57,421 nt of DNA from Promethearchaeota archaeon (GTDB lineage Archaea > Asgardarchaeota > Lokiarchaeia > Sigyniarchaeales > SOKP01). Position numbers and translations under genes: made by a program. Positions 34,556 through 57,182 of this stretch are shown piece by piece. Positions within the stretch are counted from its first letter, which is position 1, and each line of letters opens with the position of its first letter. The DNA lies in assembly GCA_008080735.1 (NCBI GenBank), contig SHMW01000018.1:1-57421 (forward strand), given 5' to 3'. The notes beneath the pieces are model-generated. The model did not search any database and was not told the DNA's origin. It saw nothing but the letters and a program-made list of their open reading frames with translations.

Positions 34556-36538
34556 TCAGATATCTTTTATTCTTGAAAATAATTTGGCAAACTGGGAGTC
34601 TTTCCGATAAAATACTGGCGGTTTTCCTATTGGAGCTTGAACATTCGTCCATCCTCCCTCATATTCATCTCCATTCCATATATGAATCCATAAATCCTTC
34701 GGCAGATATACTCTCCATAGGGACTTTTTTGGTTTTATAACTGGAGCGATTAGGAGATCTGCGCCTAAGAGATATTGATATTTAAGATTATGAAAAATTA
34801 TATCATCAGGATAATGTAAAAAACAACCCCTCATAATGGGCAAGCCTTTCTTTTGATATTCCTCAGACAGTCTTTCCAAATAAGGCTTTAGATGAACATG
34901 AACCTTGACCATTTTACTCAAATGTTCCAAAGTTTCTTTATCGGAATCAAATTGCCAGTTATCCCAAGGGCGAATTCCTTCATGAGTTCGCATAACCACA
35001 GAAAAGGCAGCAAGCTCCGCCCATCTCATAAAGACTTCTTTCGTGCGTTTGAAATCTCCTAGAGAATGAAAACCTCCTATATCGAAATGAAAATATCCAA
35101 TACCACAGAGTCCCGCAGAAATACCTGCGGGAATAACAGAGGCAAGCCCATCATCTATACTCCAAGTTACTAATTGATCTCCCGCCCATATCATGGGAGC
35201 ATATTTGGATGAGTGAGTATACCCAGAACGCATAAAGAATGTTACCTTGTCCAGAGAATCGCTTTTTTTGAGAGCTTCATAATTTACTTTTGCCCATAAT
35301 ACGGGATATTGATTATGGAATTCTTCTCCACTTATTCCTGAATGACATGATACATCAATGGGAGTATATTCACCATAATCGCACATATAGCCATCCATCC
35401 CAATCTCAATCATATTTTTAATGATTACGGACTTAATCCAGTCAAACGTTTGAGGATTTGAAAGATCTAAAATTCCAAAGCAATTTTCTGCGGTAGAATC
35501 ATCATATAAAATCTCACCGTCTTTGATTTTTATAAGACATCCCTTCTCTAAAGCCTCATCGTGGAGTGGGGCTTTATCATTCAAATAAGGATTAATATAA
35601 CCAAGAAATTTGATTCCACTCTTGTTTAACTCCTCAATATATTGGGGCAAATCTGGATATAATTCTTCATCGTATTCCCAGTTCCAAAAGAGTTGCTTTC
35701 CTTGAGAAGTCATGTTGATTCCTTCCCAATCTTGACACCATACAGCATTTACGCTAATGTTATGCTCTTTTGCTTTAGAGATCTTTGCGTTAACTACCTC
35801 CCTTCCTCCTTGCAAACCTAGCCATAATCCATCATAGACCCAATCTACTAATTTCGGTTGTCTACCTAGGAATGAAGACAATTTGGACACAGTTTCTATT
35901 AATGAATTATATTTTCCAAGGATTATTTTATTCGGAATTTCCCAAATATATAAAACATGTTTTTGAGGATCTTTAAAATTGAATTTTGAATAATAAAATG
36001 TCTCAATATGGCAAAAATAATTATGAGAGGAGATATATGTTGGTTGCGGGAAATAAGTCGTATACCAGTCTCCTGTGATGGGAGGATCTCCTCGTCCCAC
36101 TCCTTGTTCTTCAACAAATAGAGGAAGTTCCTTACCCCTCATATTTATTTCAGAAAATTGCTCTCCACATCCAAATATGGCCTCTTCTTGTGAAGCTTTT
36201 ATTTTAATCCAAAATCTATTAATCTTTTTGTCATTGCATTCAGGATAGATTTCTATACAGTCTGTTTTCGTATTTTCGTTAATACTGATATCTAAGCTGT
36301 GGTCATTTGAGTTTAATTCAATTCTTAAAGTTCCCTCGCCTTCGGAAAGAATTCTGTAATTGGAAAGAGGGATCCTTCTTTTGAGTTTATCTCTAATTTT
36401 AAAATCTCCCATCCTCATTCTATACTTTCCTTTTGCAATGCCGATTTCGAATGCGGGATCTTTTTCTGTGTGATGGATGAATAAACAGCCTTTATAAAAA
36501 ATTTTAAATTCCTTTTCCATTAATTTCCATTCAAGCAT
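34556..36538 (-). CDS. GH31 alpha-glycosidase, YihQ/sulfoquinovosidase-like
   Basis: GCGEQFS, EQGVGR, TYFPQPTY, LGLQGG, WCQDWEG...LFWNW, YMCDYGEY (nucleophile), WAGDQ (acid/base), MRTHEG: the YihQ subfamily pattern as I recall it. Confidence 0.88.
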   Translation of the reverse strand: MLEWKLMEKEFKIFYKGCLFIHHTEKDPAFEIGIAKGKYRMRMGDFKIRDKLKRRIPLSNYRILSEGEGTLRIELNSNDHSLDISINENTKTDCIEIYPECNDKKINRFWIKIKASQEEAIFGCGEQFSEINMRGKELPLFVEEQGVGRGDPPITGDWYTTYFPQPTYISSHNYFCHIETFYYSKFNFKDPQKHVLYIWEIPNKIILGKYNSLIETVSKLSSFLGRQPKLVDWVYDGLWLGLQGGREVVNAKISKAKEHNISVNAVWCQDWEGINMTSQGKQLFWNWEYDEELYPDLPQYIEELNKSGIKFLGYINPYLNDKAPLHDEALEKGCLIKIKDGEILYDDSTAENCFGILDLSNPQTFDWIKSVIIKNMIEIGMDGYMCDYGEYTPIDVSCHSGISGEEFHNQYPVLWAKVNYEALKKSDSLDKVTFFMRSGYTHSSKYAPMIWAGDQLVTWSIDDGLASVIPAGISAGLCGIGYFHFDIGGFHSLGDFKRTKEVFMRWAELAAFSVVMRTHEGIRPWDNWQFDSDKETLEHLSKMVKVHVHLKPYLERLSEEYQKKGLPIMRGCFLHYPDDIIFHNLKYQYLLGADLLIAPVIKPKKSLWRVYLPKDLWIHIWNGDEYEGGWTNVQAPIGKPPVFYRKDSQFAKLFSRIKDI

Positions 36539-36627
36539 TATGACTCTTATTAAAAATTCATAGCTTAATGAATAAATTAATCATCTGTTATTTAAGAAGG
36601 AAATTATTACAAAAAAGGAAGAGTTTT

Positions 36628-38043
36628 TTATCTCATATCGTCCATATCAACAACATTTTTCCCTAATCTGGACTTTTCAGCCGCAAAACCCATTAAATGA
36701 GATTCTAAGGACGCTCGGGCTGAAGTAAGTACTTCATTTTCGCCCTTATCACCAATTAATAAAGAATTCACAAACGACTCCATGAGACCTGCATCGCCAT
36801 CACTATGCGCCTCAAAAGTAATATCCGATTCCCAGAGTACCCTCTCATCGACATATCTATGATCATAATAAAGTAATTTCTCTCCTCCGTATGTAAAACG
36901 CCCTAAGAGGGATCCCTTTGAGCCAGATATTCTGATCCATCGTCCATCTAAATATGAATGACCATGCATGGTCATAGTCGCTGTAGTCCCATTTTCGAAC
37001 TGAATGGAGACAATTTGATGATCTGGAACATCATTATCGCATTTAAATACGCAACGTCCCCAAGGACCTTCTTGGAGTGCTTTCATCTTTCCTTCATAGG
37101 AAAGATCTTCAGTAATTACAGTAGCGGGCCAACGATTCCACTTTACCAATCCTCTCAACGGTTTAATGATATAGCTGAGAATTTTTGAAATTTTTCTATG
37201 GTTTATCAGAAGGTTCCCTATAACTCTTAACCAGCGCTTGTTAGATCTTTTAGTGACTCGAAGAATTGGCTCGCCCTTAATATATAAGCGTGGGGCATAC
37301 CATGGACAATCTTCAGCCACGGGACAGCCATCAGTACAACGGTCGGGAGCCCCCTCTGGTGTGTTTTTGGATTTATAAAAGGTCAATTCACCAAACGAAT
37401 GAATATACTTTGCTTTCGACTCAACCAACCAATATAGTAAATCCAGGTCGTGACAAGTTTTTGCTAATATCACTGGGCTTGAATCATCCGCTCTTCTCCA
37501 AGTGCCTCTCACATATCCATGGGGGAAATGCCAGTAGGCAACATTTTCAGAATGTTCGATATTTATAATTCTCCCTACTAATCCATCTTTTATAGCTTTT
37601 TTAATTTTTGAGAACATTGTAGTATATCGTGCAACATGACAAATCCTTAGTTGTTTATTTGCCTTCTCGGAAGCTTTTACTAGTTTTTTACACTCCTCTT
37701 CGGTTGTCGCCATCGGTTTTTCCAGTAATACATGGTACCCCAATTCAAGTGCTTTCAAAGCCGGTTCAGTATGCATTTTATCTTGGGTGCATATCAAACA
37801 AGCATCGGCAAGTTTTCCGATCTCAGGATTTAATAATGCTTCCCAATTTGAAAAGCAATAATTATTGGGGACATTCCATTCATTAGCAAAGCCAATCCTT
37901 CTTTCTTCAATAGGTTCGGCAACAGCAACAAAATTAATTTTATGTTTATTTTTAAGACCCCATTTTCCATAGGCATATCTTCCACGAGCTCCTGCACCAA
38001 TTAACACTGCTCTTATTTGAGATTTCTTTTTTTTCTCTTTCAT
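36628..38043 (-). CDS. Gfo/Idh/MocA family oxidoreductase
   Basis: IGAGARG, LLEKPMA, HGYVRG.W, AKTCHDLD; start moved to ATG 38043. Confidence 0.9.
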   Translation of the reverse strand: MKEKKKKSQIRAVLIGAGARGRYAYGKWGLKNKHKINFVAVAEPIEERRIGFANEWNVPNNYCFSNWEALLNPEIGKLADACLICTQDKMHTEPALKALELGYHVLLEKPMATTEEECKKLVKASEKANKQLRICHVARYTTMFSKIKKAIKDGLVGRIINIEHSENVAYWHFPHGYVRGTWRRADDSSPVILAKTCHDLDLLYWLVESKAKYIHSFGELTFYKSKNTPEGAPDRCTDGCPVAEDCPWYAPRLYIKGEPILRVTKRSNKRWLRVIGNLLINHRKISKILSYIIKPLRGLVKWNRWPATVITEDLSYEGKMKALQEGPWGRCVFKCDNDVPDHQIVSIQFENGTTATMTMHGHSYLDGRWIRISGSKGSLLGRFTYGGEKLLYYDHRYVDERVLWESDITFEAHSDGDAGLMESFVNSLLIGDKGENEVLTSARASLESHLMGFAAEKSRLGKNVVDMDDMR

Positions 38044-38057
38044 ATTAACAAACTTCC

Positions 38058-38912
38058 TTAAATTTGGTTTTTCGGAGTCTTTAATGTATCCCAATCGGTG
38101 GTGATAGTATAATCTGGATGTCCACGAATATGTGTTACGGGATAGTCATCCCCAGGATGTCCCAATAATGCAATTCGCAAGATAAGATTCGCCCAATCAT
38201 AAGAGGACCCATTTCTACAGTATAATCGAATTTTTTGCGCATTTAATACTTGTTTCATTCCTATAGTGTATGCTTCTTTGGGAAAATTTTCCAAATTACC
38301 TCCCACTTCAGCGCGTATAGCATTAATCGTTATAGTAAACTTATTCAACCTGACTTTTCTGGGACTTGAATTCTTTACACACTCTTGGGGTTCATTAAAT
38401 GCAACATGTCCATGAATTCCAATACCTCCATAGCATACATCAATCCCGCCGATTTCATTAATGACATCTTCCAAGTCGTTAATATTAGTCTCATCTGGAA
38501 AAAATACTTGTTCTTCTTTCAAATTTAAAAAATTCTCAAGTAAATCAAAAAATAGAGTTTTTGCCACTTTTTTAAAGCTTAGTGGATGAGAAATATCAAC
38601 TGCATTTCCATCTTCATCGCAATATTCATCCATAAAGAAGAACCAACAGTTCTCTAAGGATATATGTTCTTCATTCAATAATTCAGCTAAGATCGGATAT
38701 TGACCAGTTGGTCCTACTGGTAAAATAAAACGAGAGAGTTTATTATTGTTGTTATTCCTTTTTATCTCATCTCTAATATTTTCTGCAAACCTTAGATGCA
38801 ATACATCAAGGTCTTTACACACGATAATATTATCACCCGCGCGTTTTATTACTTCTTGGGGGGTTAATCGTGCGAGCTTCCTAACCTCTTGCCTTCTATC
38901 ATCCATTTTCAA
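38058..38912 (-). CDS. NagB-like sugar-phosphate deaminase/isomerase (PVGP type)
   Basis: FMDEY and GGIGIHGHVAFNEP catalytic motifs; phosphate loop reads ILPVGPT rather than LATGST. Confidence 0.85.
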   Translation of the reverse strand: MKMDDRRQEVRKLARLTPQEVIKRAGDNIIVCKDLDVLHLRFAENIRDEIKRNNNNNKLSRFILPVGPTGQYPILAELLNEEHISLENCWFFFMDEYCDEDGNAVDISHPLSFKKVAKTLFFDLLENFLNLKEEQVFFPDETNINDLEDVINEIGGIDVCYGGIGIHGHVAFNEPQECVKNSSPRKVRLNKFTITINAIRAEVGGNLENFPKEAYTIGMKQVLNAQKIRLYCRNGSSYDWANLILRIALLGHPGDDYPVTHIRGHPDYTITTDWDTLKTPKNQI

Positions 38913-39684
38913 TCATTCCTAATAAATTTAAAATATTATTTGCAAAATATAGCTTTTGTGTCGTTTTATCGATATTATATTGAATTAACCAATTTTTATC
39001 TTGGTTTAAATTGTCTGGAATCTTGGAATAATGCACATCTGTTCCAAAAACAAGCTTTTTAAAAGCACCCTCCCACCAAAGCCATTTTCTCAGCCCAATT
39101 CTATCAGCACGCACACGCCACCCATCGGGTTCCCCTGTGATATCAGAATATACATTTGGTCGCATTCGAATTAATTCGGCAGCTTCATTATTCCAATGTA
39201 CCCCAAGATGAGCAATAATAATATTCAATTTATTGAAATTATTCGCAATGGGTTCCAAACGCATAGGATGCATATCCCAAGATGAATAAGATATCTCTTT
39301 TGATGGATTTGGAATAGTAACTATTCCAGTATGAAATAATATTGGCATCTTTAGTTTTTCTGCCATTTCCCACAGAGGATAAAATGACTTGTGATTATAT
39401 GGTTTGGTGGGAATCGTCACTTTTAGCATTTTAAAACCATCATTATATGCTTCTTGAATCTCATCAATTCCAGACACTCCTGGTTGGATATAATATGAGC
39501 CAATTATCTTATCAGGATTCATTTTGAATGCTCTTTTTACATCTGAATTGTTTCTACAAAAGAATTTTTCACCCAATCCACTCAAACAACATTTTTCTAT
39601 TTCATTTATCTCCATAGTTTTTAACAGATTTTTAAGGTAATGTGGTTCATCCAAATAATGTGCATGAGCATCAATAATCAGCAT
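38899..39684 (-). CDS. Amidohydrolase_2 family metallohydrolase
   Basis: IIDAHAH, ILFHTG, IIAHLG, FGTD. Confidence 0.88.
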   Translation of the reverse strand: MLIIDAHAHYLDEPHYLKNLLKTMEINEIEKCCLSGLGEKFFCRNNSDVKRAFKMNPDKIIGSYYIQPGVSGIDEIQEAYNDGFKMLKVTIPTKPYNHKSFYPLWEMAEKLKMPILFHTGIVTIPNPSKEISYSSWDMHPMRLEPIANNFNKLNIIIAHLGVHWNNEAAELIRMRPNVYSDITGEPDGWRVRADRIGLRKWLWWEGAFKKLVFGTDVHYSKIPDNLNQDKNWLIQYNIDKTTQKLYFANNILNLLGMIENG

Positions 39685-39885: not shown

Positions 39886-41184
39886 TTAGTAATGCCCTTT
39901 CATTTCATGTCTCTCGTCTTCTATTTTCCCTTTCAGAAGCGGATCATTTGTACTAATCATCCAGTCGTTTAATTCCGTCCTTAATTCATATAAAATATCA
40001 CTATAATCTGCGTTTTCAATTAGATTATTCATCTCATTTGGATCATTCTTAAGGTCATATAATTCCTCCATAGCGCGTGGTTCTTGACTTCTTTCCTTCA
40101 TCACTTTACCCGAAGGATCCATCATAATATCTTTAGGTATTTGATAAAGAGAATCCAATTTTTTAAAATTCTTTATATATTTGAATTTATGTGTCCTTAC
40201 CCCTCTCATTGGGTCATAGATCTCATGATATGTTTTTTCCGCATATATTTTATTATGAATCTCTTCTTTCTCTCCTTTTAGAATAGGTATAAAGCTTTTT
40301 CCTTCAATTCTTTCTCCTATCTTGCCACCTACTAAATCTATAAGAGATGGTAATAAATCGATATTGCTTAACATACTTTTCACTACCTTTCCTCCGCTCA
40401 AGTATTCTGCGCCCGGATAGTGCATTAAAAGAATTGTTTTTAATCCAGGATCGTATAGCGTGCATTTAGCTCTTGGATAAGGGATACCGTGATCTGTGGT
40501 GTAAATGAATATAGTATTTTCTAATATACCAAGATCATCCAAATGGTCCCAAATTGTTCCAATTGTCTGATCTACAATCTCAACATTCCCGTAAAATCCC
40601 GCTAAATCTTCTCTAATCTCATCAATATCCGGTAAATAAGGCGGGACCTTCACTCTCGCTGGATCAACTGGTTCTGCCCACGCTTGATAAGGTCGGTGCA
40701 CCTCGATTGTCCCTATATTGACAAAAAATGGCTTCTCATCATCTTTATGCTCACTAAGAAATTTTAAATATTTTCTTTCCATCCGAGCTCGAGAGTATTT
40801 AAATTCTGGACCTCGTTTGCTAATAGTATCGTATCCTAAGGTATTCGCATCATGAACTTCATGCTGTAGTCCTAAAAGGTGTGTGGTATAACCATTTTCT
40901 TTTAAATACATTGGGAGTGTTTTATTATCTTCGGGCATGCTCCATCCAAGGTTTACAAGTCCCATTAAACCATTCTGATGAGGATATAAAGATGTTTTTA
41001 TTGAACTTCTACTGGGACTACATTGCGGAGCGGTACAAAAATAATTAGTAAATTGAACCCCCTCTTGAGCAATTTTGTCTATATTCGGAGTATTCAACGA
41101 ATTTGGTACTTCGGAATCATAACATCCAGCATACTGTCCTTGATCATGGGTAATAAATAAAACAATATTCGGTTTTTTATTCAT
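39886..41184 (-). CDS. Cys-type S1 sulfatase, sulfamidase (N-sulfoglucosamine sulfohydrolase)-like
   Basis: KPNIV, CSPSR formylglycine motif, VHRPY, PPYLPD, TDHGIPYPRAKCTLYDPG, ELYDL..DP.E..NL. Confidence 0.9.
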   Translation of the reverse strand: MNKKPNIVLFITHDQGQYAGCYDSEVPNSLNTPNIDKIAQEGVQFTNYFCTAPQCSPSRSSIKTSLYPHQNGLMGLVNLGWSMPEDNKTLPMYLKENGYTTHLLGLQHEVHDANTLGYDTISKRGPEFKYSRARMERKYLKFLSEHKDDEKPFFVNIGTIEVHRPYQAWAEPVDPARVKVPPYLPDIDEIREDLAGFYGNVEIVDQTIGTIWDHLDDLGILENTIFIYTTDHGIPYPRAKCTLYDPGLKTILLMHYPGAEYLSGGKVVKSMLSNIDLLPSLIDLVGGKIGERIEGKSFIPILKGEKEEIHNKIYAEKTYHEIYDPMRGVRTHKFKYIKNFKKLDSLYQIPKDIMMDPSGKVMKERSQEPRAMEELYDLKNDPNEMNNLIENADYSDILYELRTELNDWMISTNDPLLKGKIEDERHEMKGHY

Positions 41185-41366: not shown

Positions 41367-42035
41367 ATGAAGTATTTTTTAGATAGTGCGATAATTGACG
41401 AAATAATATATGCGAAAGAAAACTGGGGCATTGTAGGGGTTACTTCCAATCCTAAGCATGTGAAGACATCTGGAAAGGAGTTTTTTACCGTCGTGAAAGA
41501 ATTCGCTGATACTTTTGATGATGATAATTTTCCTATTTCTGTAGAAATTGACCCGCATATTAAAGACGCTGAAACCATGATTAGTGAAGCAAAAAAGATC
41601 GCCGCTCTCTCTAATAATTTCGTTATTAAAATTCCATGTAATGAACAAGGGTTAATTGCAACAAAAAAATTATCAGATAAGGGAATCAAAGTAAATGTGA
41701 CCTTAGTATTCACAAGCTCACAAGCCTTACAAGTTGGACGCATAGGAGCTCGATATTGTTCTCCGTTCATTGGATGGCAGGAGGCGAGTGGCGTGGATTG
41801 TTATAATTTAATCGCAGACATCGTCACCATGTATCATAACTACGATTTTGATACAGAAATTATCGTTGCAGCCGTGAGAAATGGAAAACAAATCGCCGAC
41901 GCAGCGGTGATGGGTGCGGATATAGTTACCGCTGGTTTTGATGTATATAAAGGGAGCTTTGAACACCCCTTTACGGATAAAGGATTAAAGATTTTCCAAG
42001 ATGCATGGGATGAAACCGACATAGGTTCTCTCTAA
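41367..42035 (+). CDS. Transaldolase, sulfofructose transaldolase (SqvA/SftT)-like
   Basis: MKYFLDSA, GVTSNPKH, FPISVEI, VIKIPC (Schiff-base Lys), NVTLVF, SPFIGW (Trp where phosphate-binding transaldolases have Arg), AAVRNGKQI. Confidence 0.85.
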   Translation: MKYFLDSAIIDEIIYAKENWGIVGVTSNPKHVKTSGKEFFTVVKEFADTFDDDNFPISVEIDPHIKDAETMISEAKKIAALSNNFVIKIPCNEQGLIATKKLSDKGIKVNVTLVFTSSQALQVGRIGARYCSPFIGWQEASGVDCYNLIADIVTMYHNYDFDTEIIVAAVRNGKQIADAAVMGADIVTAGFDVYKGSFEHPFTDKGLKIFQDAWDETDIGSL

Positions 42036-43668: not shown

Positions 43669-43893
43669 ATGAGCGGAAAAATCAAAATTAAGGAAGAATA
43701 TTGTAAAGGATGCGGATTTTGCGTTGAGATTTGTCCTAAAAGCGTTTTAAAACAAAATTCGAAATCGAATGCTAAAGGATTTATTCTTCCAGAAGTAATA
43801 AATAGAGAGGAATGCATATTTTGTAAAAAATGTGAACTAATTTGCCCTGAGATGGCTATATCTATAATAAACGAGGAGGAAAATAATGAATGA
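43669..43893 (+). CDS. korD: 2-oxoacid:ferredoxin oxidoreductase delta subunit (2x[4Fe-4S])
   Basis: CKGCGFCVEICP and CIFCKKCELICP; first gene of the OFOR operon. Confidence 0.88.
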   Translation: MSGKIKIKEEYCKGCGFCVEICPKSVLKQNSKSNAKGFILPEVINREECIFCKKCELICPEMAISIINEEENNE

Positions 43894-47737: not shown

Positions 47738-48103
47738 ATGATGAAAAACCAAGAATTTGAGGTAAATTGGAAAAAATGCAAGAATTGCGGATTTATACAA
47801 CATCATTCTCATATAAGATGTTTGAAATGTAAAAATGAACAATTTACTACAACAGAACCATCTGGAAAGGCTACCCTTATAAGTTATACGATTTTGAAGT
47901 CACCTCCCATGGAATTTCGAGATAAACATTCCTATGCATTAGGAATAATTGAATTTGAAAATGGAATTAGATTAATGGGGCAGATTAAGGAGAATGCCGA
48001 TTTAGAAATTGGAATAGAAGTAAAACTTCACAATGAGACCATCTGTAAGGATTTAGATGGAAGGGAAATTATTACATACATTTTTGAACCCGTTAAAAGT
48101 TAA
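47738..48103 (+). CDS. DUF35 Zn-ribbon/OB-fold protein
   Basis: CKNCG...CLKC, G...SYT, LEIGIEV; adjacent to the thiolase-fold gene. Confidence 0.9.
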   Translation: MMKNQEFEVNWKKCKNCGFIQHHSHIRCLKCKNEQFTTTEPSGKATLISYTILKSPPMEFRDKHSYALGIIEFENGIRLMGQIKENADLEIGIEVKLHNETICKDLDGREIITYIFEPVKS

Positions 48104-48127
48104 ATTCATATAAGGAGGACGTGGAAT

Positions 48128-49804
48128 ATGTTTTCAGAAGAGGAATTAAAAAAGTTAAAGGAAATAAAAGAAAGATGGAAATCAAAAGTATTAGAAAAAT
48201 ATATAAAAAAAGGAGAGAGAAGAGAAGAATTTAAGACACCTTCGGGAATTCCCATAAAGCAAATATATGATCCTTTGGATATAGAAGATTTGAATTATAT
48301 AAAAGATCTTTCCTATCCGGGATTAACTCCTTTTACAAGGGGTGTGTATCCAACCATGTATAGAGGAAGGATCTGGACAATGCGACAATATAGTGGATTC
48401 GCTGACGCGAAAAAAACAAATGAACGCTTTAAATATTTAATCTCCCAAGGACAGAAGGGTTTATCTATTGCGTTTGATCTTCCCACGCAGATGGGGTATG
48501 ATCCCGATAATGAAATATGTTATGGAGAAGTTGGAAAGGTTGGTGTTTCTATTAGTTCGTTAAAAGATTTCGAGGTTTTATTTCAAGACATTCCTTTAGA
48601 TAAGATATCTACAAGCATGACTATTAATTCCCCAACAGCAGTACTATTAGCGATGTATATAGCAATGGCTGAAAAAAGAGGAATAGATAAAAAGGAATTA
48701 AGAGGGACTGTGCAAAATGATATATTAAAAGAATATATTGCCAGAGGAACTTATATATTCCCACCAGAACCTTCCTTACGGTTAACTGCGGACATCATTG
48801 AATATTGCTCTGACTACATGCCTCGCTTCAATACAATAAGTATAAGTGGATATCATATGAGAGAAGCGGGTTCAAATGCGATACAAGAACTTGCTTTTAC
48901 TTTAGCGAACGGTATTGCTTATGTAAAAGAGGTTTTAAAAAGGGGAATTGATATTGATGATTTTGCTCCAAGATTATCTTTTTTCTTCGCAGCTCAAAAT
49001 GATGTGTTTGAGGAGATAGCAAAATTTAGAGCCGCAAGGCGATTATGGGCTCATATAATGAAAGAAAAGTTCAATGCAAAAAACCCGAATTCTTTTAAGA
49101 TGAGATTTCATACACAAACCGCGGGTATAACGCTCACAGCTCAACAACCAAAAGTAAATATCATAAGAGTGGCCATACAGGCATTATCGAGCATCTTGGG
49201 TGGCACTCAAAGTCTACATACCTGCGGAGCTGATGAGGCCCTAAGTATTCCCACCGAAGATTCTGTAAGAATTTCCCTAAGAACTCAACAAGTCCTTGCC
49301 TATGAATCGGGAATTACTAATGTGGTTGATCCTGTCGGCGGATCATACTATCTTGAATATTTAACAAAGGAATTGGAACAAAAAACTATGGAATATATAA
49401 ATAAAATTGAAAAAATGGGTGGAATGACTGCGGCAATAAACTCAAATTATATACAAAACGAAATTTCTGAAAATGCTTACCTAACCCAGAGGAGAATTGA
49501 AAAGGGAGAAAAAACAATTGTTGGGGTAAATGCCTTTCAAACAGAAGAAGATTTAAAAATTGAAACGTTCACATTTGACGAAAATATTACTAAAAGGAAA
49601 ATTGATGAATTGTATACCCTAAAGGAAGAAAGAGATAATAATTTGGTGCAAAATCGTTTAGTAGATCTGAAAAGAGTCGCTGAAAGTAATGAAAACATTA
49701 TGCCTGCAGTAATAAATGCCGTGAAAGCTTACGCGACACTACAAGAGATCTGTGATATACTTAGAGAGGTTTTTGGTGAATATCAAAGTAGAACTATCTT
49801 TTAA
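48128..49804 (+). CDS. Methylmalonyl-CoA mutase, substrate-binding (large) subunit
   Basis: PFTRGVYPTMY, WTMRQYSGF, AFDLPTQMGYD, QNDILKEYIARG, ISISGYH, GGTQSLHT; no B12-binding domain. Confidence 0.93.
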   Translation: MFSEEELKKLKEIKERWKSKVLEKYIKKGERREEFKTPSGIPIKQIYDPLDIEDLNYIKDLSYPGLTPFTRGVYPTMYRGRIWTMRQYSGFADAKKTNERFKYLISQGQKGLSIAFDLPTQMGYDPDNEICYGEVGKVGVSISSLKDFEVLFQDIPLDKISTSMTINSPTAVLLAMYIAMAEKRGIDKKELRGTVQNDILKEYIARGTYIFPPEPSLRLTADIIEYCSDYMPRFNTISISGYHMREAGSNAIQELAFTLANGIAYVKEVLKRGIDIDDFAPRLSFFFAAQNDVFEEIAKFRAARRLWAHIMKEKFNAKNPNSFKMRFHTQTAGITLTAQQPKVNIIRVAIQALSSILGGTQSLHTCGADEALSIPTEDSVRISLRTQQVLAYESGITNVVDPVGGSYYLEYLTKELEQKTMEYINKIEKMGGMTAAINSNYIQNEISENAYLTQRRIEKGEKTIVGVNAFQTEEDLKIETFTFDENITKRKIDELYTLKEERDNNLVQNRLVDLKRVAESNENIMPAVINAVKAYATLQEICDILREVFGEYQSRTIF

Positions 49805-49954: not shown

Positions 49955-50458
49955 GTGAAAGAGCTTATGAAGAAAAAAGTTTTAGTCTTTGAGCCTAAAA
50001 AATGTATTGGATGCCGATTATGTGAGGGTTACTGTGCAATGACTCATTATGGAGTTAATAACCCCTCAAAATCACGTATTCGTATTATAAGAAATCATAA
50101 AAAACAAATAGATATTGCGATCTATTGTCATCAATGTATTAACCCTCCTTGTGTGGAAGCATGCAAATTTAATGCTCTAAGTGTTGATTCTGAAACTGGA
50201 GCGATTTCCGTTGAAGAGGAGAATTGCACAGCTTGCAGAATGTGTGTTGAAAAATGTCCTTATGCGGTACCATCTATTCATCCAGATAACAATATTATAA
50301 TGATCTGTGATTTATGTGGAGGAGAACCTAAATGCGTAGAGATATGTCCAGAAAACGCAATTCAATACCTTGAGATTCATAAAGCCGACAATATATACAA
50401 GTCAATATATACTAAACAAGCAGCAGAAAATTTAACTTATAGGGAGGAGGGAAAATGA
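49955..50458 (+). CDS. 4x[4Fe-4S] electron-transfer subunit (AOR-associated)
   Basis: CIGCRLCEGYC, CHQC..PPCVEAC, CTACRMCVEKCP, CDLCGGEPKCVEICP. Confidence 0.92.
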   Translation: MKELMKKKVLVFEPKKCIGCRLCEGYCAMTHYGVNNPSKSRIRIIRNHKKQIDIAIYCHQCINPPCVEACKFNALSVDSETGAISVEEENCTACRMCVEKCPYAVPSIHPDNNIIMICDLCGGEPKCVEICPENAIQYLEIHKADNIYKSIYTKQAAENLTYREEGK

Positions 50459-52281
50459 AAAAATCTTTTGGAATGATGGGTAAATTATTAAGGGTTAATC
50501 TCACAACAGAAAAGATTTCAACTGAATCTATAAGCTTCAAATTATGGGAAGCCTTTTTGGGTGGCCGAGGACTTGGAGCCTACTATTTAATGAAAGAGGT
50601 TCCTCCAGATACAGACCCACTAAGTCCAGATAATAAACTTATTTTCATGAATGGACCATTAGCGGGTACGATAATTCCTGGAAATAATAAAATATGTGTT
50701 ACTTTTAAATCATATCTCACAGAAAGTTATTCCTATTCATTATGTGGAGGCTTTTGGGGTCCAGAATTAAAATATGCTGGCTATGATGGTCTTATAATGG
50801 AAGGGAAGGCATCAAAACCAGTGTATCTTTGGATTGATGATGAAAATATTGAAATCAAGGTTGCAGATCATATTTGGGGAGAGATGATCTCTGAAAGTGA
50901 GGAACAAATTCGTAGAGAACTTGGAGGCGATGAAACAATTCAAATTGCAGTTATAGGTCCCGCAGGAGAGAAAAAGGTGGCTTATGCATGTATCACTGCT
51001 GGTCAATATAGGGAATTTGGGAGAGGAGGTTCTGGTGCAATAATGGGATCAAAGAATTTGAAAGGAATCGCACTGCGAGGGTCTCATGATGTTATCGTTG
51101 GCAAACCAGATGAATTAATCCCCTTATCTAAAAGATTAATTCAAAATCTACAAAAATCATCTGGAGGTCAGATTCGAAGGAAATATGGCACGATGGAATT
51201 GGTTGAAAGAATAAATGATGCGGGCTTTTGGGTAACTCGGAATTTTTCAGGAGGATATTTTGAAGAGGGTTATAAACTGGAAGGAGAACAAATGCGCCAA
51301 GAGATTGTGAGTGGCGATAGTTCCTGTTTTGGTTGTCCTATAGGGTGTGGCAAATGGACCTATGTTCAAACTAAGGATGGAGAGATCTTACAAATGGAGG
51401 GTCCTGAGTTTGAGAGTGTTGGAATGTTAGGGTCAAACTGTGGTATTAGCGATTGGAAAACCATAATGGCTGCCACTAAAATCTGTGATACTTATGGGTT
51501 TGATACTATTAATGGTGGTGGAATTATAGGGATGCTTATGGAAGCCTATGAATCAGGTGCCTTGGACAAAGAGAATATCGATGGAATTGACTTGACTTTT
51601 GGGAATGGGGATGCCCTCTTGAAAATGTTGAAGAAAATAGGAAAAAGAGAAGGTATCGGGGATATTCTCGCAAAAGGTATAGAACGTGCCGGAAGGGAAT
51701 TAGGCATATTAGAATTTGCGGTTCATTCAAAAGGACAAACTTTCCCTGTATACGATCCTCGTGGCGCAAAGGCGATGGCATTGACATATTCCACCAGCCC
51801 AAAAGGAGCGCATCATATGTTCGCGACTACTTTCGGAGCTGAGTTAACAATGGGCAATAGGTTCGAAGAGGAAGGAAAAGCGAGTTTAGAAAGAACTCAT
51901 CAATTCAGTATGGCAATTGTAGACTCTATTGCTCTATGCTCGACAATGCGAGCGGGAATAACGTTGAATGATCAAGCGGAAGCATATTCGGTTGTCACAG
52001 GAATGCAAATGGATATAGATAAATTAAATGAAGCCGCGGAGCGTATTATTAACCTTGAAAGAATGTATAATGTTCTTATCGGTTATAATCGTGAGAATGA
52101 TACTTTACCGAGTAAATTTCTAAATGTAGCTATGCCGAAAGGTGAAAGCAAAGGTCAAACTGTAAATCTTAGTTTAATGTTGGATGAATATTATGACGTT
52201 ATGGGTTGGACAATTGATGGAATTCCAACTAAAGAGAAGCTACATCAATTAGAACTAAATCGTTTTATTGATGGAATCTAA
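50455..52281 (+). CDS. aor: Tungsten-dependent aldehyde:ferredoxin oxidoreductase family protein
   Basis: LGGRGLG, GPELKYAGYD, GRGG.GAIMGSKNLK, CFGCPIGC, GPEFE, D.YG.DTI, YDPRG. Confidence 0.92.
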   Translation: MKKSFGMMGKLLRVNLTTEKISTESISFKLWEAFLGGRGLGAYYLMKEVPPDTDPLSPDNKLIFMNGPLAGTIIPGNNKICVTFKSYLTESYSYSLCGGFWGPELKYAGYDGLIMEGKASKPVYLWIDDENIEIKVADHIWGEMISESEEQIRRELGGDETIQIAVIGPAGEKKVAYACITAGQYREFGRGGSGAIMGSKNLKGIALRGSHDVIVGKPDELIPLSKRLIQNLQKSSGGQIRRKYGTMELVERINDAGFWVTRNFSGGYFEEGYKLEGEQMRQEIVSGDSSCFGCPIGCGKWTYVQTKDGEILQMEGPEFESVGMLGSNCGISDWKTIMAATKICDTYGFDTINGGGIIGMLMEAYESGALDKENIDGIDLTFGNGDALLKMLKKIGKREGIGDILAKGIERAGRELGILEFAVHSKGQTFPVYDPRGAKAMALTYSTSPKGAHHMFATTFGAELTMGNRFEEEGKASLERTHQFSMAIVDSIALCSTMRAGITLNDQAEAYSVVTGMQMDIDKLNEAAERIINLERMYNVLIGYNRENDTLPSKFLNVAMPKGESKGQTVNLSLMLDEYYDVMGWTIDGIPTKEKLHQLELNRFIDGI

Positions 52282-52347: not shown

Positions 52348-53604
52348 ATGCGAGCTCAAAAATTTCCGAAGATGCGGTTTGTCACTCAAGCTATCAGATT
52401 TCCTGAAGTGGAGAATCTTGAATCTTTGATCACTAACAAGCTTAAGGACTTTGGATTAAATAAGAGGGTTTCTAATGGTGAAAGGATCGCATTAACTGCT
52501 AGTTCACGGGGAATAAAATCCCAAGCGCTTATTCTTCGACTTCTAGTAGATTATCTAAAGACCTTAGGCACTAAACCATATATAATTCCCGCGATGGGGA
52601 GCCACGGAGGCGCAACTGCTAAGGGACAAATGGAAATCTTAAAAGAATATGGAATAACTACTCAGTCCATGGGTTGTCCAATTAGAGCTACTATGGAAGT
52701 GGTTAAACTTGGAGTCACTGAATTTGGAACCCCTTTAGTTGTTAATAAACATGTATTAGATGCAGATAAAATTTTTATAATCAACAAAATCAATACTCAT
52801 TCCAAATTCGTGGGGCCGGTAGAGAGTGGTCTTAGTAAAATGTGCTTAATTGGCCTCGGAAGCCATCAAGGAGCTAAACTTTATCATCGACTCATTGAAA
52901 AATATTCTTGGACGACTGTTATCCAATCTCTAAGTAACTTAATCATAGAGAAATTACCTATTATGGCAGGTTTAGCAATAATTCAGAATGCTTATAATAA
53001 AGTTTCTGAGATTCATTTTTTAAAACCAGAAGAATTTGTTGAGAAAGAACCAGAATTACTAGAGAGATGTAAAGAAATCAAGCCTAAAATTCCTTTTAAT
53101 GAATTGGACCTCCTCATTATTGATGAGATGGGCAAAAATATCTTCGGTACGGGTATGGATACCCAAATCACAGGTAAGAAACGCAACTCTGAGATGAATG
53201 TTCAATGGGTATTTGTCAGAGATCTCACGGAAGAAACTCATGGAAATGCTCAAGGTATAGGTCTTGCGGATTTTACTACCAAACGTTTAGTAGATAAAAT
53301 AGATTTCTCACAGACCTATGAGAATGCTTTGACAGCTTATCGTACAGATTCTCCAAAAATTCCCATTTTCCTTCCCACTGACAAGGATATATTGAATAAA
53401 ATATTCGATGTATCGGGCATAAAAAACCCTTCGGAATTTCGAATAGTTTGGATTAAAAATACCTTAGAACTCGGAAAGATGTTAGTTTCTGAAGCTTTTT
53501 TTGATGAAATAGAAAGTAAAATTAATCTTAATTCTGTTGAGGGTGTAGAAGATATACAATTTGACAAGCAAGGTTATCTAACTAACTCTAAAAAATATTG
53601 GTAA
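52348..53604 (+). CDS. Lactate-racemase-N (DUF2088/DUF362)-like protein
   Basis: SRGI, IPAMGSHGGATA.GQ, ESGL.KM..IGLG...GA, GKNI.GTGMD, HGNA.GIGLAD. Confidence 0.8.
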   Translation: MRAQKFPKMRFVTQAIRFPEVENLESLITNKLKDFGLNKRVSNGERIALTASSRGIKSQALILRLLVDYLKTLGTKPYIIPAMGSHGGATAKGQMEILKEYGITTQSMGCPIRATMEVVKLGVTEFGTPLVVNKHVLDADKIFIINKINTHSKFVGPVESGLSKMCLIGLGSHQGAKLYHRLIEKYSWTTVIQSLSNLIIEKLPIMAGLAIIQNAYNKVSEIHFLKPEEFVEKEPELLERCKEIKPKIPFNELDLLIIDEMGKNIFGTGMDTQITGKKRNSEMNVQWVFVRDLTEETHGNAQGIGLADFTTKRLVDKIDFSQTYENALTAYRTDSPKIPIFLPTDKDILNKIFDVSGIKNPSEFRIVWIKNTLELGKMLVSEAFFDEIESKINLNSVEGVEDIQFDKQGYLTNSKKYW

Positions 53605-53701: not shown

Positions 53702-54631
53702 ATGGCTGATGTCAACTATACATTCTTGCTTTCTTTAACCATAATTACCTTGGGATATTTACTGAAAAAAGCTAATATCATCTCAGAAGAGAATGGAAGA
53801 TCTATCGCAAAAGTTGTGTTCAATGCTACATTGCCAGCTCTTATTTTTAAAACAGTTGTATCAATCGAAATTACCCCAACTCTAATCCTACTCACAGTAA
53901 TTCCATTATTATATGCTGGTTTTGTATTTACTCTCTCATATTTCATATATCGTAAAGATCATCCTTCAATAACAGGGCTTTCATTGATGAGTGTTATAGG
54001 TTTTAATGTTGTACATTTAGCATTTCCTTTAATAGAGAGAATTTGGGGAACCGAGGGGTTAAAATATATAGCGATGTTCGATATCGCAAACGGTTTTGTT
54101 ATATTTGTGATGTGTTATTTAATAGGTTCAATATTTTCTCCTAAAAACGAGAGAGTAAATAAAAGAGACATTTTTAAAAAGAGTGCAAGAAAGCTATTAT
54201 CTTCTGGACCGCTGATTGCATATTTCATCGCTTTAATTCTAAATCTCTCCGGGCTTCTAATTCCCAACTTCATTAGTGATATTATGGATATCCTTGGAAG
54301 AGCTAATTCAGCTCTAACCTTATTATTACTCGGAATATTCTTGAATTTTCATTTTGAGAAAAGTAAATGGAAAAATATTTTAAAAATCTTAGGTATTAGA
54401 TATTTGTTTGGACTCGTAATAGGTATCTCTCTCTTTTTCTTGTTGCCCTTTAATCTCCTTTATAGAGGTATATTATCTATTGCTCTAATTTTACCAATAG
54501 GCCTCGCGATGATTCCGTATGCCGTCGAATTTGAATATGATGAAGAATTGATGGGAATGGCAATCAATTTATCGTTGGTAATTTCATTTGTTTTGATGTG
54601 GCTATTAATCCTAATTTTAGGTTTCGGATAA
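53702..54631 (+). CDS. AEC (auxin efflux carrier/malate permease) family transporter
   Basis: V....LPALIF, N.....FP...IWG.EG, L.LLLLGI, two 5-TM repeats. Confidence 0.85.
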   Translation: MADVNYTFLLSLTIITLGYLLKKANIISEENGRSIAKVVFNATLPALIFKTVVSIEITPTLILLTVIPLLYAGFVFTLSYFIYRKDHPSITGLSLMSVIGFNVVHLAFPLIERIWGTEGLKYIAMFDIANGFVIFVMCYLIGSIFSPKNERVNKRDIFKKSARKLLSSGPLIAYFIALILNLSGLLIPNFISDIMDILGRANSALTLLLLGIFLNFHFEKSKWKNILKILGIRYLFGLVIGISLFFLLPFNLLYRGILSIALILPIGLAMIPYAVEFEYDEELMGMAINLSLVISFVLMWLLILILGFG

Positions 54632-54681: not shown

Positions 54682-55227
54682 CTATAATGAAACTTTCTGG
54701 AATTCATACAAACTGTCGACTTTTCCAACATATCGAAATAAATCTGTGCTGAGTATGCGAGATTTTATTTGCTGCTCATCAAAATGATGATCGTCCACCC
54801 AGAGTCTCCCATCCTTTTTCAATACTCTATAAAACTCTTTTAGATGACTTTCATAGTTTTCTAATCCGTGTAAAACATCTATCAATACTACTTTATCAAT
54901 TGAGCTTTTCTCTAAATCCACCTTACAATCGGTGGTGATTGTATCAATATTACTGAGGTCATTCTTATCTGCTCGTTTTTTTACTTTTTCTGATGCTAAT
55001 GGATGGATATCTGCTGCGAATACCTTTCCTGTAGGTCCAATCTTTTCTGCTATGGGAATTGTATAGCTTCCAGGACCGCATCCGTATTCTAAGATATAAT
55101 CACCTTTTTGAAGATCTACTTTTTCGATTTTTTTCATAGGATCCTTAAAAAAGTCCCTAATTTTAAAGAAAAAAGCCATTATTTTAAAATCTATATTACT
55201 TTTATGTTCACTGTCATAATTATTCAT
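54682..55227 (-). CDS. Class I SAM-dependent methyltransferase
   Basis: ILEYGCGPG, VFAADI, DVLH...EFYRVLK..G. Confidence 0.9.
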   Translation of the reverse strand: MNNYDSEHKSNIDFKIMAFFFKIRDFFKDPMKKIEKVDLQKGDYILEYGCGPGSYTIPIAEKIGPTGKVFAADIHPLASEKVKKRADKNDLSNIDTITTDCKVDLEKSSIDKVVLIDVLHGLENYESHLKEFYRVLKKDGRLWVDDHHFDEQQIKSRILSTDLFRYVGKVDSLYEFQKVSL

Positions 55228-55460
55228 TTTTTTTTATCACTCCCATTAGGCTCAAATGCTTGGAATAATTTAGCGGCAAATCCATTTAATTCTGAAGCTT
55301 TGATTAATCCCAATCCTTTATTGATATCACCAAATACCAAGATCTTGTCTCCTTCATTTATGTTGAATAACTCTCTCGCTTCTTTGGGAATCGTTATTTG
55401 GCCTCTCTCACCGACTGTTGATGAGCCAAAAAACATTCTGTTTTTTTTGTGTTTTTTCAT
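55224..55460 (-). CDS. AbrB/MazE/SpoVT family DNA-binding protein
   Basis: TVGERGQITIPKEARELFNINEGDKILV; overlaps the methyltransferase start by 4 nt. Confidence 0.92.
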   Translation of the reverse strand: MKKHKKNRMFFGSSTVGERGQITIPKEARELFNINEGDKILVFGDINKGLGLIKASELNGFAAKLFQAFEPNGSDKKK

Positions 55461-55532: not shown

Positions 55533-55856
55533 TATTTTGGAACTCCTAAAATGTAAAAATTAATTGTTGAATAAATTAACAAATACTTTTCTTTTATCTA
55601 TTTCATAGCCATTCTAGGATAAGATATAGATTAGAATGAAAATGAAGAATTGAATGGAATAGGTTCTTAATCAAATCACATTTTTTGAAATCCTATTTAA
55701 ATCAAATAAAAGAATTACATGAAATCCTTATCATTTATTTTTTATTGAAATTGATCTAATCGCAATAAAACTATAAATTATAGTCATAGAAAATTTATTG
55801 AGAGATACATGGTTCTTCCTTAGTAAAACTAATCTTAAAAATAATCTATTTATGAG

Positions 55857-57182
55857 TTGAATGAAATGAAAGAAAAGATCAAGATCGGGGTTTGTTGCTT
55901 GGCACGCAAAACTTTTGATTTTAATGCCGCTCTTAATATTTATAAAAAGATTCAAGGAGAATTGAAACAGATTGAAGCAATCGAATGGGTTTTTATTGAA
56001 GACTTGGTTATTGAAATAGAAGAAGGTCAAGAAGCGTCGCATTATTTTGCATCTCAAGAGGTCGATGGATTAGTGGTAATAAGTGGAACATTTGCGTTAG
56101 GACATCTAGTATTGGAACTTAATAAACGAGTACAAAAATCTATTCTTTTATGGGGATTGGAAGAATTACCGTATGATGGAGGAAGAATACGATTAAATTC
56201 CGTGTGTGGAATAAATTTAAATGCGTCTAATTTGTATAAAGCGGGTGTAAAAAATTTCCATGTGGTAATTGGAGAGAAAATCGATGAAGATTGGTTGGAT
56301 GCTATCCGTATTAAAAGAGCCCTCTCAGAAGCACACATAGGGGTAATTGGCTCCAGAGCTCATGGGTTTTTCAATCTTGATGTTGATGAATTGTATTTAT
56401 ATAAAGAACTCGGGGTTCTTGTGGATTTTTATCCGCTTGGCGATTTATTCAACCAAGAAATTGATTACGATAAGCTTCCCGAGAGAAAAACTCAATTAGA
56501 AACGTTATTTGACCTTTCCAGATTAGAGGAGCATCAAGTAGAAAAAGTAGCGGACTTAATAATAAAGTTTGAGACTTTTATTGAAAACAATCACCTCACC
56601 TCTATTGCAATACGCTGCTGGCCAGAATTCGCCGCTAAATTTGGAATATCGCCTTGCGCCGCGATGTCAGTACTTCAATCAGAAGGGAAAGTTCTGACGT
56701 GTGAAGGAGATGTGTTGGGCAGCCTATCTATGCTCGCGCACTCCGCTATTGGTGGAGAAACACCATACTTAGCTGATTTTTCTCAAGTCGATTTTAAGGA
56801 GGATTTTGGCCTTTTATGGCATTGCGGAGTGGCCCCATGCAATCTCTGGGATGGAAAATGTATACGGGCTTTAGATTCTGATTTTGCTGGCGGTAAAGGA
56901 GTAACGGCAGATTTTGTGATGAAACCCGGGGACATTTCTCTCTTACGATTTGATTATGCTCCAGGAGAATATAGGGTATTCATTCAAAAAGGCGAGGCAA
57001 TCCCAATGAAAAAGGAATTAAAAGGAACCTACGCTAAAGTTAAATTTAAAGATCATGTACGAGTCGTATTGGATAAGATAATTGAAAATGGAATTGCGCA
57101 TCATATCTCCGTAGTGTATGGTGATTTTATTAGACCTTTAAAAATATTCGGAAAAATTATAGGTTGGAAAATAATCAAATAA
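55857..57182 (+). CDS. L-fucose/L-arabinose isomerase family protein, candidate sulfoquinovose isomerase (SqvD/SftI-like)
   Basis: ARKTFD, RLNSVCG, AIRCWPEF, CEGD, WHCG, G.AHH...YG metal-binding motifs; functional call rests on gene context. Confidence 0.8.
   Translation: MNEMKEKIKIGVCCLARKTFDFNAALNIYKKIQGELKQIEAIEWVFIEDLVIEIEEGQEASHYFASQEVDGLVVISGTFALGHLVLELNKRVQKSILLWGLEELPYDGGRIRLNSVCGINLNASNLYKAGVKNFHVVIGEKIDEDWLDAIRIKRALSEAHIGVIGSRAHGFFNLDVDELYLYKELGVLVDFYPLGDLFNQEIDYDKLPERKTQLETLFDLSRLEEHQVEKVADLIIKFETFIENNHLTSIAIRCWPEFAAKFGISPCAAMSVLQSEGKVLTCEGDVLGSLSMLAHSAIGGETPYLADFSQVDFKEDFGLLWHCGVAPCNLWDGKCIRALDSDFAGGKGVTADFVMKPGDISLLRFDYAPGEYRVFIQKGEAIPMKKELKGTYAKVKFKDHVRVVLDKIIENGIAHHISVVYGDFIRPLKIFGKIIGWKIIK

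Follow-up and report, generated by a model that had tools for sequence, protein, structure and literature searches.

Sulfoquinovose is an abundant sulfur sugar of algae and plants, produced at ~10 billion tonnes/year (PMC12890257), and according to a 2026 review all known pathways for its degradation are bacterial, with none characterised in archaea; archaeal degraders go unmentioned in two other recent papers. One of them is the sulfo-transaldolase pathway (sulfo-TAL, also sulfo-SFT) of Priestia (Bacillus) aryabhattai SOS1, P. megaterium DSM 1804 and Eubacterium rectale, which combines SftG/YihQ, the isomerase SftI/SqvD, the transaldolase SftT/SqvA and either SftR or SftD (PMC7491151, PMC9594981). 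In the literature we searched, this pathway is described only in bacteria and no sulfosugar degradation is tied to Asgard archaea. Here we analyse a stretch of 57,421 nucleotides (the window), contig SHMW01000018.1 of a Promethearchaeota archaeon from the Lokiarchaeia (assembly GCA_008080735.1; 4.15 Mb, 140 contigs, 93% complete), for which a reading made from the sequence alone had suggested a sulfo-TAL pathway in an Asgard-like host. The host is indeed of that kind, in that close relatives of its transaldolase belong to Promethearchaeota/Promethearchaeia genomes, and the genes named in the sequence-only reading are all found in place in the open reading frame (ORF) listing and by Pfam.

The window has in common with the bacterial sulfo-TAL/SFT systems the three core enzyme families, their kinase-free logic, and a transaldolase with the same catalytic triad and the same W-A-R motif. 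It differs in its archaeal host, in a divergent isomerase (about 25-28% identity), in a GH31 pocket altered by R301Q/Y508F and in having an AEC-family transporter instead of a TauE-type exporter. In this genus, moreover, an iron-sulfur (FeS) subunit, an aldehyde:ferredoxin oxidoreductase (AOR) and a LarA-like protein are found instead of the NAD-dependent reductase or dehydrogenase. What is new in the window is the FeS-AOR-LarA-like-AEC arrangement of one genus, the double substitution in the GH31 pocket and a split GPH gene.

The gene identities, motifs and synteny described below lead us to infer the following substrates, aldehyde and racemase steps and directions of transport. A GPH-type transporter would import a sulfoquinovosyl glycoside, from which a cytoplasmic YihQ-family GH31 would release sulfoquinovose; a divergent SftI-like isomerase would convert this to sulfofructose, and the W-A-R transaldolase would move C1-C3 to glyceraldehyde-3-phosphate, yielding fructose-6-phosphate and sulfolactaldehyde. 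Taken jointly, these four core steps are, on sequence grounds, probable. The genus lacks the YihU-family reductase found in relatives between transaldolase and AEC, and has FeS-AOR-LarA-like in its place just upstream of AEC. The AOR would oxidise sulfolactaldehyde to (S)-sulfolactate with reduction of ferredoxin, a reaction in keeping with a syntroph that releases hydrogen or formate. The sulfolactate might then be racemised by the LarA-like enzyme, and AEC would export the product. To this archaeal sulfo-TAL/SFT route in full, AOR branch included, we assign a probability of roughly 0.4.

The three best matches of the transaldolase among solved structures are all the sulfofructose transaldolase of Bacillus megaterium (8BC3, 8BC4 and 8BC2; 292-296 bits), with 296 bits for 8BC3 against 163 bits for the best ordinary transaldolase, 1VPX. 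In PMC11659671, which cites Snow et al. 2023, the residues that define the Bacillus enzyme (BmSF-TAL) are given as catalytic D6/E61/K89, sugar-orienting N111/S133 and the sulfonate-orienting W-A-R. The window protein retains catalytic D6, E60 and K88, sugar-orienting N110 and S132, and the sulfonate motif as W137-A169-R171 instead of the phosphate-binding R-S-R. In our alignment, the catalytic residues and W-A-R are common to 34 further archaeal sequences, including all cluster-linked archaeal orthologues; both are also present in four bacterial sequences (SAR324, Secundilactobacillus and two from Planctomycetes), and R-S-R in the two ordinary transaldolases, which are of the Bdellovibrio type. 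A quick tree puts a long branch between W-A-R sequences and ordinary transaldolases and places the SAR324 sequence, with weak support, among the archaeal ones; since this tree holds few bacterial sequences and none from Bacillus, it says little about a donor lineage. By bit score, motif alignment and tree, then, the protein clusters with the sulfofructose transaldolases and not with ordinary ones, and every motif that the sequence-only reading had listed for SqvA (MKYFLDSA, ENW, NPKH, FPISVEI, PFIGW, RNGKQI) occurs in its translation. No other TAL_FSA gene was found in the 93%-complete genome. Some relatives have an ordinary transaldolase, some have both types and some neither, and the W-A-R enzyme is therefore not a housekeeping necessity.

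The isomerase is more divergent. SqvD/SftI belongs to PF02952, the FucI family (PMC9594981), in agreement with the sequence-only reading, and the window isomerase likewise matches PF02952, though weakly (34 bits, cut-off 29.3). Its sole NCBIfam match, over the full length, is the SftI equivalog NF048012 (229 bits), and among the same models neither FucI nor AraA matches, so that its only curated affiliation is with SftI and not with ordinary sugar isomerases. Identity to bacterial SftI-like genes is about 25-28%, with 28% over the full length of the window protein for the SftI-like protein of a bacterial cluster, with which the CE-x-D and HH motifs, candidate Mn2+ ligands, align in sequence. 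More than 100 orthologues are present in public data at ≥67% identity, and those with a taxon label are assigned to Lokiarchaeota, Promethearchaeota, Hodarchaeota or Hermodarchaeota. Public gene calls give a protein of 438 aa, and the start probably lies three codons downstream of the call at 55857. One orthologue appears decayed, with an in-frame TAA (G009:C85:108662-109981).

All best solved matches of the GH31 protein are sulfoquinovosidases (E. rectale-type 8R56, 2e-197; E. coli YihQ 5AED, 6e-196; 5OHS, 1e-154), the next class being YicI at 1e-47, and the protein scores 829 bits against the NCBIfam YihQ equivalog NF007746, above the cut-off of 553. It is 44% identical to E. coli YihQ over 661 residues, and by eye its N-terminus shows no signal peptide. 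We aligned it with E. coli YihQ (K-12 record) and 22 other archaeal orthologues; in E. coli numbering, the nucleophile and acid-base residues D405 and D472 are conserved both in the window protein and in 22/22 of the others. The window protein also keeps Q262, Q288, W304 and H537. D405, D472, Q288, W304 and H537 are shared with both E. coli YihQ and the Agrobacterium tumefaciens sulfoquinovosidase (5AED, 5OHS), from which it differs by R301Q, Y508F and T509H and by a shorter loop after the EQGVGR motif. Sulfoquinovose is, from the sequence, a likely but not certain substrate. An apparently decayed GH31 copy was found in one relative, with three stops in its N-terminal part (G017:C4:30080-30610). 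The neighbouring GFO/IDH/MocA gene (36628-38094) was considered as an NAD-dependent sulfoquinovosidase of the SqgA/GH188 type and rejected, its match to 8QC2 (26 bits) being at the generic level of the family.

The distribution of these genes was surveyed in 61 genomes, namely the source genome (G000) and 60 relatives, a W-A-R-type transaldolase orthologue being counted at ≥65% identity. Such a transaldolase is found in 22/61 genomes and an isomerase orthologue also in 22/61, with both in 20/61. The isomerase adjoins the transaldolase and GH31 in many relatives, and AEC orthologues adjoin the isomerase in at least nine. Several gene orders recur: transaldolase-isomerase-GH31 (G054, G028 and many metagenome-assembled genomes, MAGs), transaldolase-AEC-isomerase-GH31 (G009, G051), transaldolase-YihU-like-isomerase-GH31 (L051) and transaldolase-YihU-like-AEC-isomerase (G012, G043, L077 and Ca. 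Lokiarchaeum ossiferum, the last with a 3-kb gap before AEC). Operons of transaldolase, isomerase and GH31 span families f1, f2 and f4 and many further Promethearchaeota MAGs. Co-conservation, whose lack the sequence-only reading would have counted against itself, is therefore clear, in the form of tight operons in three families. The reductase in the clusters of relatives is a beta-hydroxyacid dehydrogenase of ~294 aa from the YihU sulfolactaldehyde reductase family, although its scores mark it only as a generic member and its identity to YihU is 31%; the sulfo-TAL pathway of anaerobic Firmicutes likewise has a YihU-family reductase. Transaldolase, reductase, AEC, isomerase and GH31 genes are all present in the cultured Ca. 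Lokiarchaeum ossiferum Loki-B35 (CP104013.1; G055, of the same order), and the core operon is for this reason directly testable.

In the window the three core genes are scattered over 23 kb, with 14 kb between isomerase and transaldolase, and the intervening genes are best understood from the same genus. One genome (G003) has an uninterrupted transaldolase-Nramp-FeS-AOR-LarA-like-AEC-isomerase run, and the block of oxidoreductase, thiolase and mutase genes at 43886-49804 of the window is missing from its equivalent interval. A sister contig (L117, isomerase 82% identical) has 2-oxoacid:ferredoxin oxidoreductase-thiolase-OB-mutase-FeS-AOR-LarA-like-AEC and, further on, isomerase-MFS_2; two others (L120/L121, isomerase 76% identical) have 2-oxoacid:ferredoxin oxidoreductase-FeS-AOR-LarA-like-AEC and again isomerase-MFS_2, having kept of that block only the oxidoreductase genes beside FeS-AOR. 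The block is probably unrelated, or loosely linked, to the sulfosugar cluster.

Searches with bacterial genes outside the core returned little. With E. coli YihO-V and CsqR as tblastn queries against the window, YihQ was the sole match; against the genome, YihR, YihS, YihT and YihU gave nothing, and the other Yih proteins and CsqR gave distant family members only. Our search for the canonical Firmicute cluster in plasmid records returned only ordinary transaldolases, at <45% identity. The Secundilactobacillus similis locus (L079) is degraded, with GH31 split and SftI truncated.

Of the transporters, the GPH/MFS fragment reported in the sequence-only reading is real but tiny: the end of the window cuts off an MFS_2 transporter of which 31 C-terminal residues are left. 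Searched by tblastn with sister-contig queries, this tail is 84% identical to L117, while residues 1-416 lie at G000:C42:1-1248 with 90% identity; because a single MFS_2/GPH gene is split between them, contigs C18 (the window) and C42 must be adjacent. In L117, L120 and L121 the MFS_2 gene comes after the isomerase. E. coli YihO/YihP are likewise members of Pfam MFS_2, and judged by this family membership the gene is likely to encode the importer. The role of product exporter given earlier to AEC gains support from relatives: AEC is coupled to an aldehyde-converting gene in both types of cluster and is, on that account, likely to export the C3-sulfonate product.

What becomes of sulfolactaldehyde is the part of the route in which this genus departs from its relatives. 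The sequence-only reading had noted that no NAD-dependent sulfolactaldehyde enzyme is evident, and this stands for the window and, for the YihU type, for the genome. A YihU-type reductase is absent from the window, the best match in the genome has 21 bits, and tblastn against the genome with E. coli YihU and with the archaeal cluster reductase found nothing. For other families the statement does not hold, as three full-length aldehyde dehydrogenase (ALDH) genes and four iron-type alcohol dehydrogenase (Fe-ADH) genes lie elsewhere. The AOR in the window, one of 11 in the genome, has full-length AFOR_N and AFOR_C domains, with P. furiosus 1AOR (450 bits) and WorL 9MQX_D (440 bits) as its best solved matches. 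The FeS subunit gene overlaps the AOR start by 4 nt, and its product best matches the WOR5 Fe-S subunit 6X6U_B (125 bits) and AorA 8C0Z_C. The pair thus resembles P. furiosus AOR and the WorSL/AorAB-type enzymes (1AOR, 9MQX, 8C0Z, 6X6U) in its full-length AFOR domains and, as in the two-subunit types, in a poly-ferredoxin small subunit encoded directly upstream, but unlike them it sits inside a sulfosugar cluster.

Given a gap of 9 nt between the LarA-like gene and AEC in G003 and of 8 nt between the YihU-like gene and AEC in G012, FeS-AOR-LarA-like can be said to occupy the reductase slot directly upstream of AEC. Four species-level lineages of the genus (window, G003, L117 and L120/121) have FeS-AOR-LarA-like-AEC as an unbroken run. 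Seven genomes have the cluster-type reductase and seven have this AOR orthologue, with zero overlap, and 7/7 of the latter carry the W-A-R transaldolase; the complementarity of AOR and reductase does, however, track phylogeny, so that it is not independent evidence and, counted by genera, is not significant.

A cluster outside the archaea also bears on the AOR. On a contig of the bacterial group SAR324 (JANQGX010000038.1; L073, L116), 2-Hacid_dh, Ldh_2 (ComC family) and AOR genes lie side by side and, diverging from this set, there follow GFO/IDH/MocA, SftI-like and GntR genes and then a W-A-R transaldolase. The AOR is 33% identical to that of the window and the transaldolase 67% identical to the archaeal one. 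The cluster appears to be a sulfo-TAL variant that relies on an AOR and in which two dehydrogenases racemise sulfolactate, and its transaldolase, nested among Asgard sequences, suggests inter-domain transfer. In the literature searched, no paper links an AOR with sulfolactaldehyde. By analogy we tentatively take the AOR to act on this aldehyde. Of the earlier proposal that it does so, gene position and analogy speak in favour, and the occurrence of the same module away from the cluster, together with the other ALDH, Fe-ADH and AOR genes, against.

Between the AOR and AEC, both of which the sequence-only reading discussed, lies a LarA-like gene that it left out. The protein passes NF052515 ('NPN-dependent isomerase, group 22') with 462 bits (cut-off 400). 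Sequence and profile searches of the PDB gave no match, and an AlphaFold model (pLDDT 80, pTM 0.75) has malate/lactate racemases as its top 19 PDB folds (E 2e-10 to 1e-7). A LarC gene is present in the genome. H86, H151, K164 and H180 are invariant among 10 orthologues, and their spacing resembles that of LarA H108, H174, K184 and H200, which comprise its catalytic His pair, the Lys that tethers the cofactor and a Ni-binding His; on this comparison of spacing, the four residues are candidates for the same roles. Sulfoquinovose gives rise to (2S)-sulfolactaldehyde and (2S)-sulfolactate, the sulfo-lyase SuyAB takes the (2R) form, and bacteria bridge the two by means of two dehydrogenases. By analogy, the LarA-like protein is a speculative candidate for a sulfolactate racemase, a one-enzyme equivalent of the two-dehydrogenase system. 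Like SlcC/ComC and the LarA racemases it would invert a 2-hydroxyacid after aldehyde oxidation, but the task that the former system gives to two dehydrogenases would here fall to one protein with the LarA fold, from the uncharacterised group 22; the SAR324 cluster has an SlcC/ComC-like pair (2-Hacid_dh and Ldh_2) beside its AOR. No paper in the literature searched pairs a lactate racemase with sulfolactate. That some Lokiarchaeia perform a ferredoxin-linked oxidative sulfoglycolysis, with an AOR followed by the first LarA-type sulfolactate racemase, the product either leaving through AEC for partners that respire sulfite or sulfonates or becoming a suitable substrate for an (R)-specific sulfo-lyase, is a doubtful proposition as a whole.

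Contig C36 of the genome also encodes a UxaA/SuyAB-like dehydratase split into two parts of 92 and 394 aa. We considered it as a desulfonation link for sulfolactate and rejected it: orthologues are widespread in f1, including many genomes without the transaldolase, and this independent spread therefore lends no specific support to such a link. The C36 locus (L110:7291-8750, 10002-11831, 11940-15142) combines the dehydratase with a regulator of the ArsR type, a further AOR gene, an aminotransferase gene and a gene for a thiamine diphosphate (ThDP) enzyme with weak similarity to Xsc (sulfoacetaldehyde acetyltransferase), and may serve organosulfonate or sugar-acid metabolism.

Several observations weigh against the proposed route, in its AOR branch and in its core. 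Beginning with the former, it is quite possible that the core is as described and that FeS-AOR-LarA-like is an independent module lodged in a variable interval, where it would handle aldehydes derived from 2-oxoacids or amino acids together with 2-hydroxyacids, or lactaldehyde, leaving sulfolactaldehyde to an unlinked ALDH, Fe-ADH or other AOR. The module is indeed also found outside the cluster, both in other genera and in two same-genus genomes; in G001, G009, G014 and G024 its neighbours are unrelated, and in G005 FeS-AOR has no LarA-like neighbour and lies ~175 kb away, after a Glu/Leu/Phe/Val dehydrogenase gene. The interval between transaldolase and AEC takes unrelated insertions, comprising the oxidoreductase, thiolase and mutase genes in the window and ~12 kb of surface-type genes in G005. 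(The insertion in G005, a genome of the same genus, at L035:8510-15615 on G005:C10, contains five tandem ORFs of ~450 aa without Pfam match, a GtrA-like gene, an amine-oxidase-like gene and a methyltransferase gene.) In three lineages (window, L117, L120/121) 2-oxoacid:ferredoxin oxidoreductase genes precede the AOR, and AORs classically oxidise aldehydes from 2-oxoacid metabolism, partnering such enzymes in peptide fermentation. The genome has 10 other AOR genes in addition to the three ALDH and four Fe-ADH genes. Two of these Fe-ADH genes lie ~1-1.5 kb from AOR paralogues (C11 26753-29359; C2 112204-115308), pairs that may interconvert aldehyde, alcohol and acid. Finally, four genomes (G019, G028, G042 and G054) have the core operon with neither the cluster-type reductase nor this AOR, and there an unlinked enzyme must therefore serve. 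An independent module accords less well with its replacement of the YihU-like gene before AEC, at a distance of only 9 nt in G003, with the W-A-R transaldolase in 7/7 genomes that have the AOR orthologue, and with the SAR324 cluster as an independent case of AOR linkage.

As regards the core, the sulfonate pocket of the GH31 is the principal difficulty. The Q/E-RWY motif is regarded as the signature of YihQ-type sulfoquinovosidases (PMC12780224; bioRxiv preprint), with R301, W304 and Y508 as its sulfonate-recognising part. In the window protein R301 is replaced by Gln (GKQLFWNW) and Y508 by Phe followed by His (DIGGFHSL), and the complete R301/W304/Y508 triad is found in 0/22 of the other archaeal orthologues. 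Position 301 is Q, R or L among these, and three pocket types can be distinguished: R301/F508-H509, Q301/Y508-T509 and Q301/F508-H509. Residues 508 and 509 covary strictly, F508 with H509 and Y508 with T509, and the R/Q switch at 301 is independent of them. One orthologue (L024, G014) has L301 together with Y304. The isomerase score of 229 bits is far under the NF048012 cut-off of 700; the bacterial SftI-like genes of SAR324 (310 bits) and Secundilactobacillus (288 bits) are also under it. DUF4867 (SqvB/SftX, a putative mutarotase) was not found in the genome, a result made uninformative by control genomes that are silent too.

These departures might indicate that the same enzyme logic is applied to another C6-modified sugar, such as a 6-O-sulfated, 6-deoxy or 6-carboxy glucoside, leaving a different 2-hydroxyaldehyde. 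Besides the loss of R301, Y508 or both in every aligned archaeal GH31, this would fit the sulfatase, NagB-like isomerase/deaminase and amidohydrolase genes conserved beside the transaldolase (the NagB-like gene in Planctomycetes as well), and it would fit the cluster reductase of relatives, for which tartronate-semialdehyde reductase gives a better score than sulfolactaldehyde reductase does, and in which K stands at the position of YihU R123. We consider a different sugar unlikely. The transaldolase has the W-A-R motif and the Bacillus sulfofructose transaldolase as its top match (296 bits), the GH31 scores above the YihQ equivalog cut-off with Q288 and W304 intact, and SftI is the sole curated relative of the isomerase. 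In the enzymes with F508-H509, the covariation suggests that His509 could form a hydrogen bond with the sulfonate in place of Y508; for the Q301 group, no single compensating basic residue was found in the archaeal alignment. Other active sulfoquinovosidases without the RWY motif have been reported (PMC12780224), and for this reason the changes at R301 and Y508 leave sulfoquinovosidase activity possible. With these two residues replaced, the protein is therefore best labelled YihQ-family and sulfoquinovosidase-like, not a proven sulfoquinovosidase.

That an ordinary pentose-phosphate transaldolase, a fucose/arabinose isomerase and an alpha-glucosidase are neighbours by chance, as a single TAL_FSA gene and a spread over 23 kb might suggest, is very improbable in view of W-A-R in place of phosphate-binding R-S-R, relatives with an ordinary transaldolase in addition or with none, tight operons of the three genes across three families and the failure of FucI and AraA models to match.

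The features of the locus, mapped from the ORF listing and Pfam/NCBIfam scans, are given in Table 1.

Table 1. Genes of the putative sulfosugar cluster and its surroundings in the window
Feature	Position	Strand	Basis or remark
GH2 glycosidase	32049-34535	+	Pfam; recurs near cluster in relatives
GH31, YihQ family	34556-36538	-	660 aa
GFO/IDH/MocA oxidoreductase	36628-38094	-	Pfam/NCBIfam
NagB-like protein	38058-38912	-	Pfam/NCBIfam
Amidohydro_2	38899-39684	-	Pfam/NCBIfam
Sulfatase	39886-41184	-	Pfam/NCBIfam; transaldolase diverges from sulfatase
Transaldolase, TAL_FSA, SftT/SqvA-like	41367-42035	+	222 aa
Nramp-family transporter	42087-43457	+	Pfam Nramp; NCBIfam Nramp_1 118 bits, cut-off 50
2-oxoacid:ferredoxin oxidoreductase alpha/beta/gamma	43886-46462	+	Pfam
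Thiolase + OB protein	46508-48103	+	Pfam
Methylmalonyl-CoA-mutase-type gene	48128-49804	+	Pfam
Poly-[4Fe-4S] electron-transfer subunit of AOR	49955-50458	+	Fer4_11
AOR, tungsten/molybdenum-pterin aldehyde:ferredoxin oxidoreductase	50455-52281	+	AFOR_N + AFOR_C
LarA-like nickel-pincer (NPN) 2-hydroxyacid racemase/epimerase homologue	52348-53604	+	NCBIfam NF052515
AEC-family (Mem_trans) transporter	53702-54631	+	Pfam
SAM methyltransferase + AbrB/MazE-type small DNA-binding protein	54682-55460	-	
FucI-family isomerase, SftI/SqvD-like	55857-57182	+	PF02952
GPH/MFS_2 transporter, C-terminal 31 residues	57329-57421	-	tblastn

Some of the neighbouring genes recur with the cluster. The Nramp gene is found beside it in G003 and G017, and the FucI-type isomerase may receive its Mn2+ through this transporter. 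A block of NagB-like, Amidohydro_2, (GFO) and sulfatase genes is kept beside the transaldolase in L050, L051, L053, L058, L066 and L069, and a NagB-like gene (51-53% identical) flanks W-A-R transaldolases in two Planctomycete contigs (L080, L085), with a sulfatase near one of them. This block may be a second feeder branch, for example from an amino- or sulfated sugar to a fructose-6-sulfate-like ketose. A GH2 gene recurs beside the W-A-R transaldolase in many Promethearchaeota, and we regard it as a separate glycan branch. Between AEC and the isomerase, on the opposite strand, a methyltransferase and an AbrB/MazE-type protein of 78-82 aa are conserved within the genus (window, L117, L120, L121), and the latter may be a local regulator. 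A few kb upstream of the cluster, an IlvD/Edd-family dehydratase gene (24861-26528) and a mandelate-racemase/enolase-superfamily gene (28323-29411) suggest sugar-acid metabolism within the same island.

The YihQ-like pocket described here does not match the motif by which sulfoquinovosidases are currently identified in metagenomes, and if these GH31 proteins act on sulfoquinovosides, surveys based on that motif undercount such enzymes. If the proposed route is correct, the conserved operon would supply one definite sugar substrate for Asgard archaea, whose physiology is little known, and would tie Promethearchaeota to organosulfonate cross-feeding in anoxic sediments. Its AOR branch points to a possible ferredoxin-dependent, NAD-independent means of disposing of sulfolactaldehyde, which, if real, would provide Asgard archaea with low-potential electrons from a sulfosugar.

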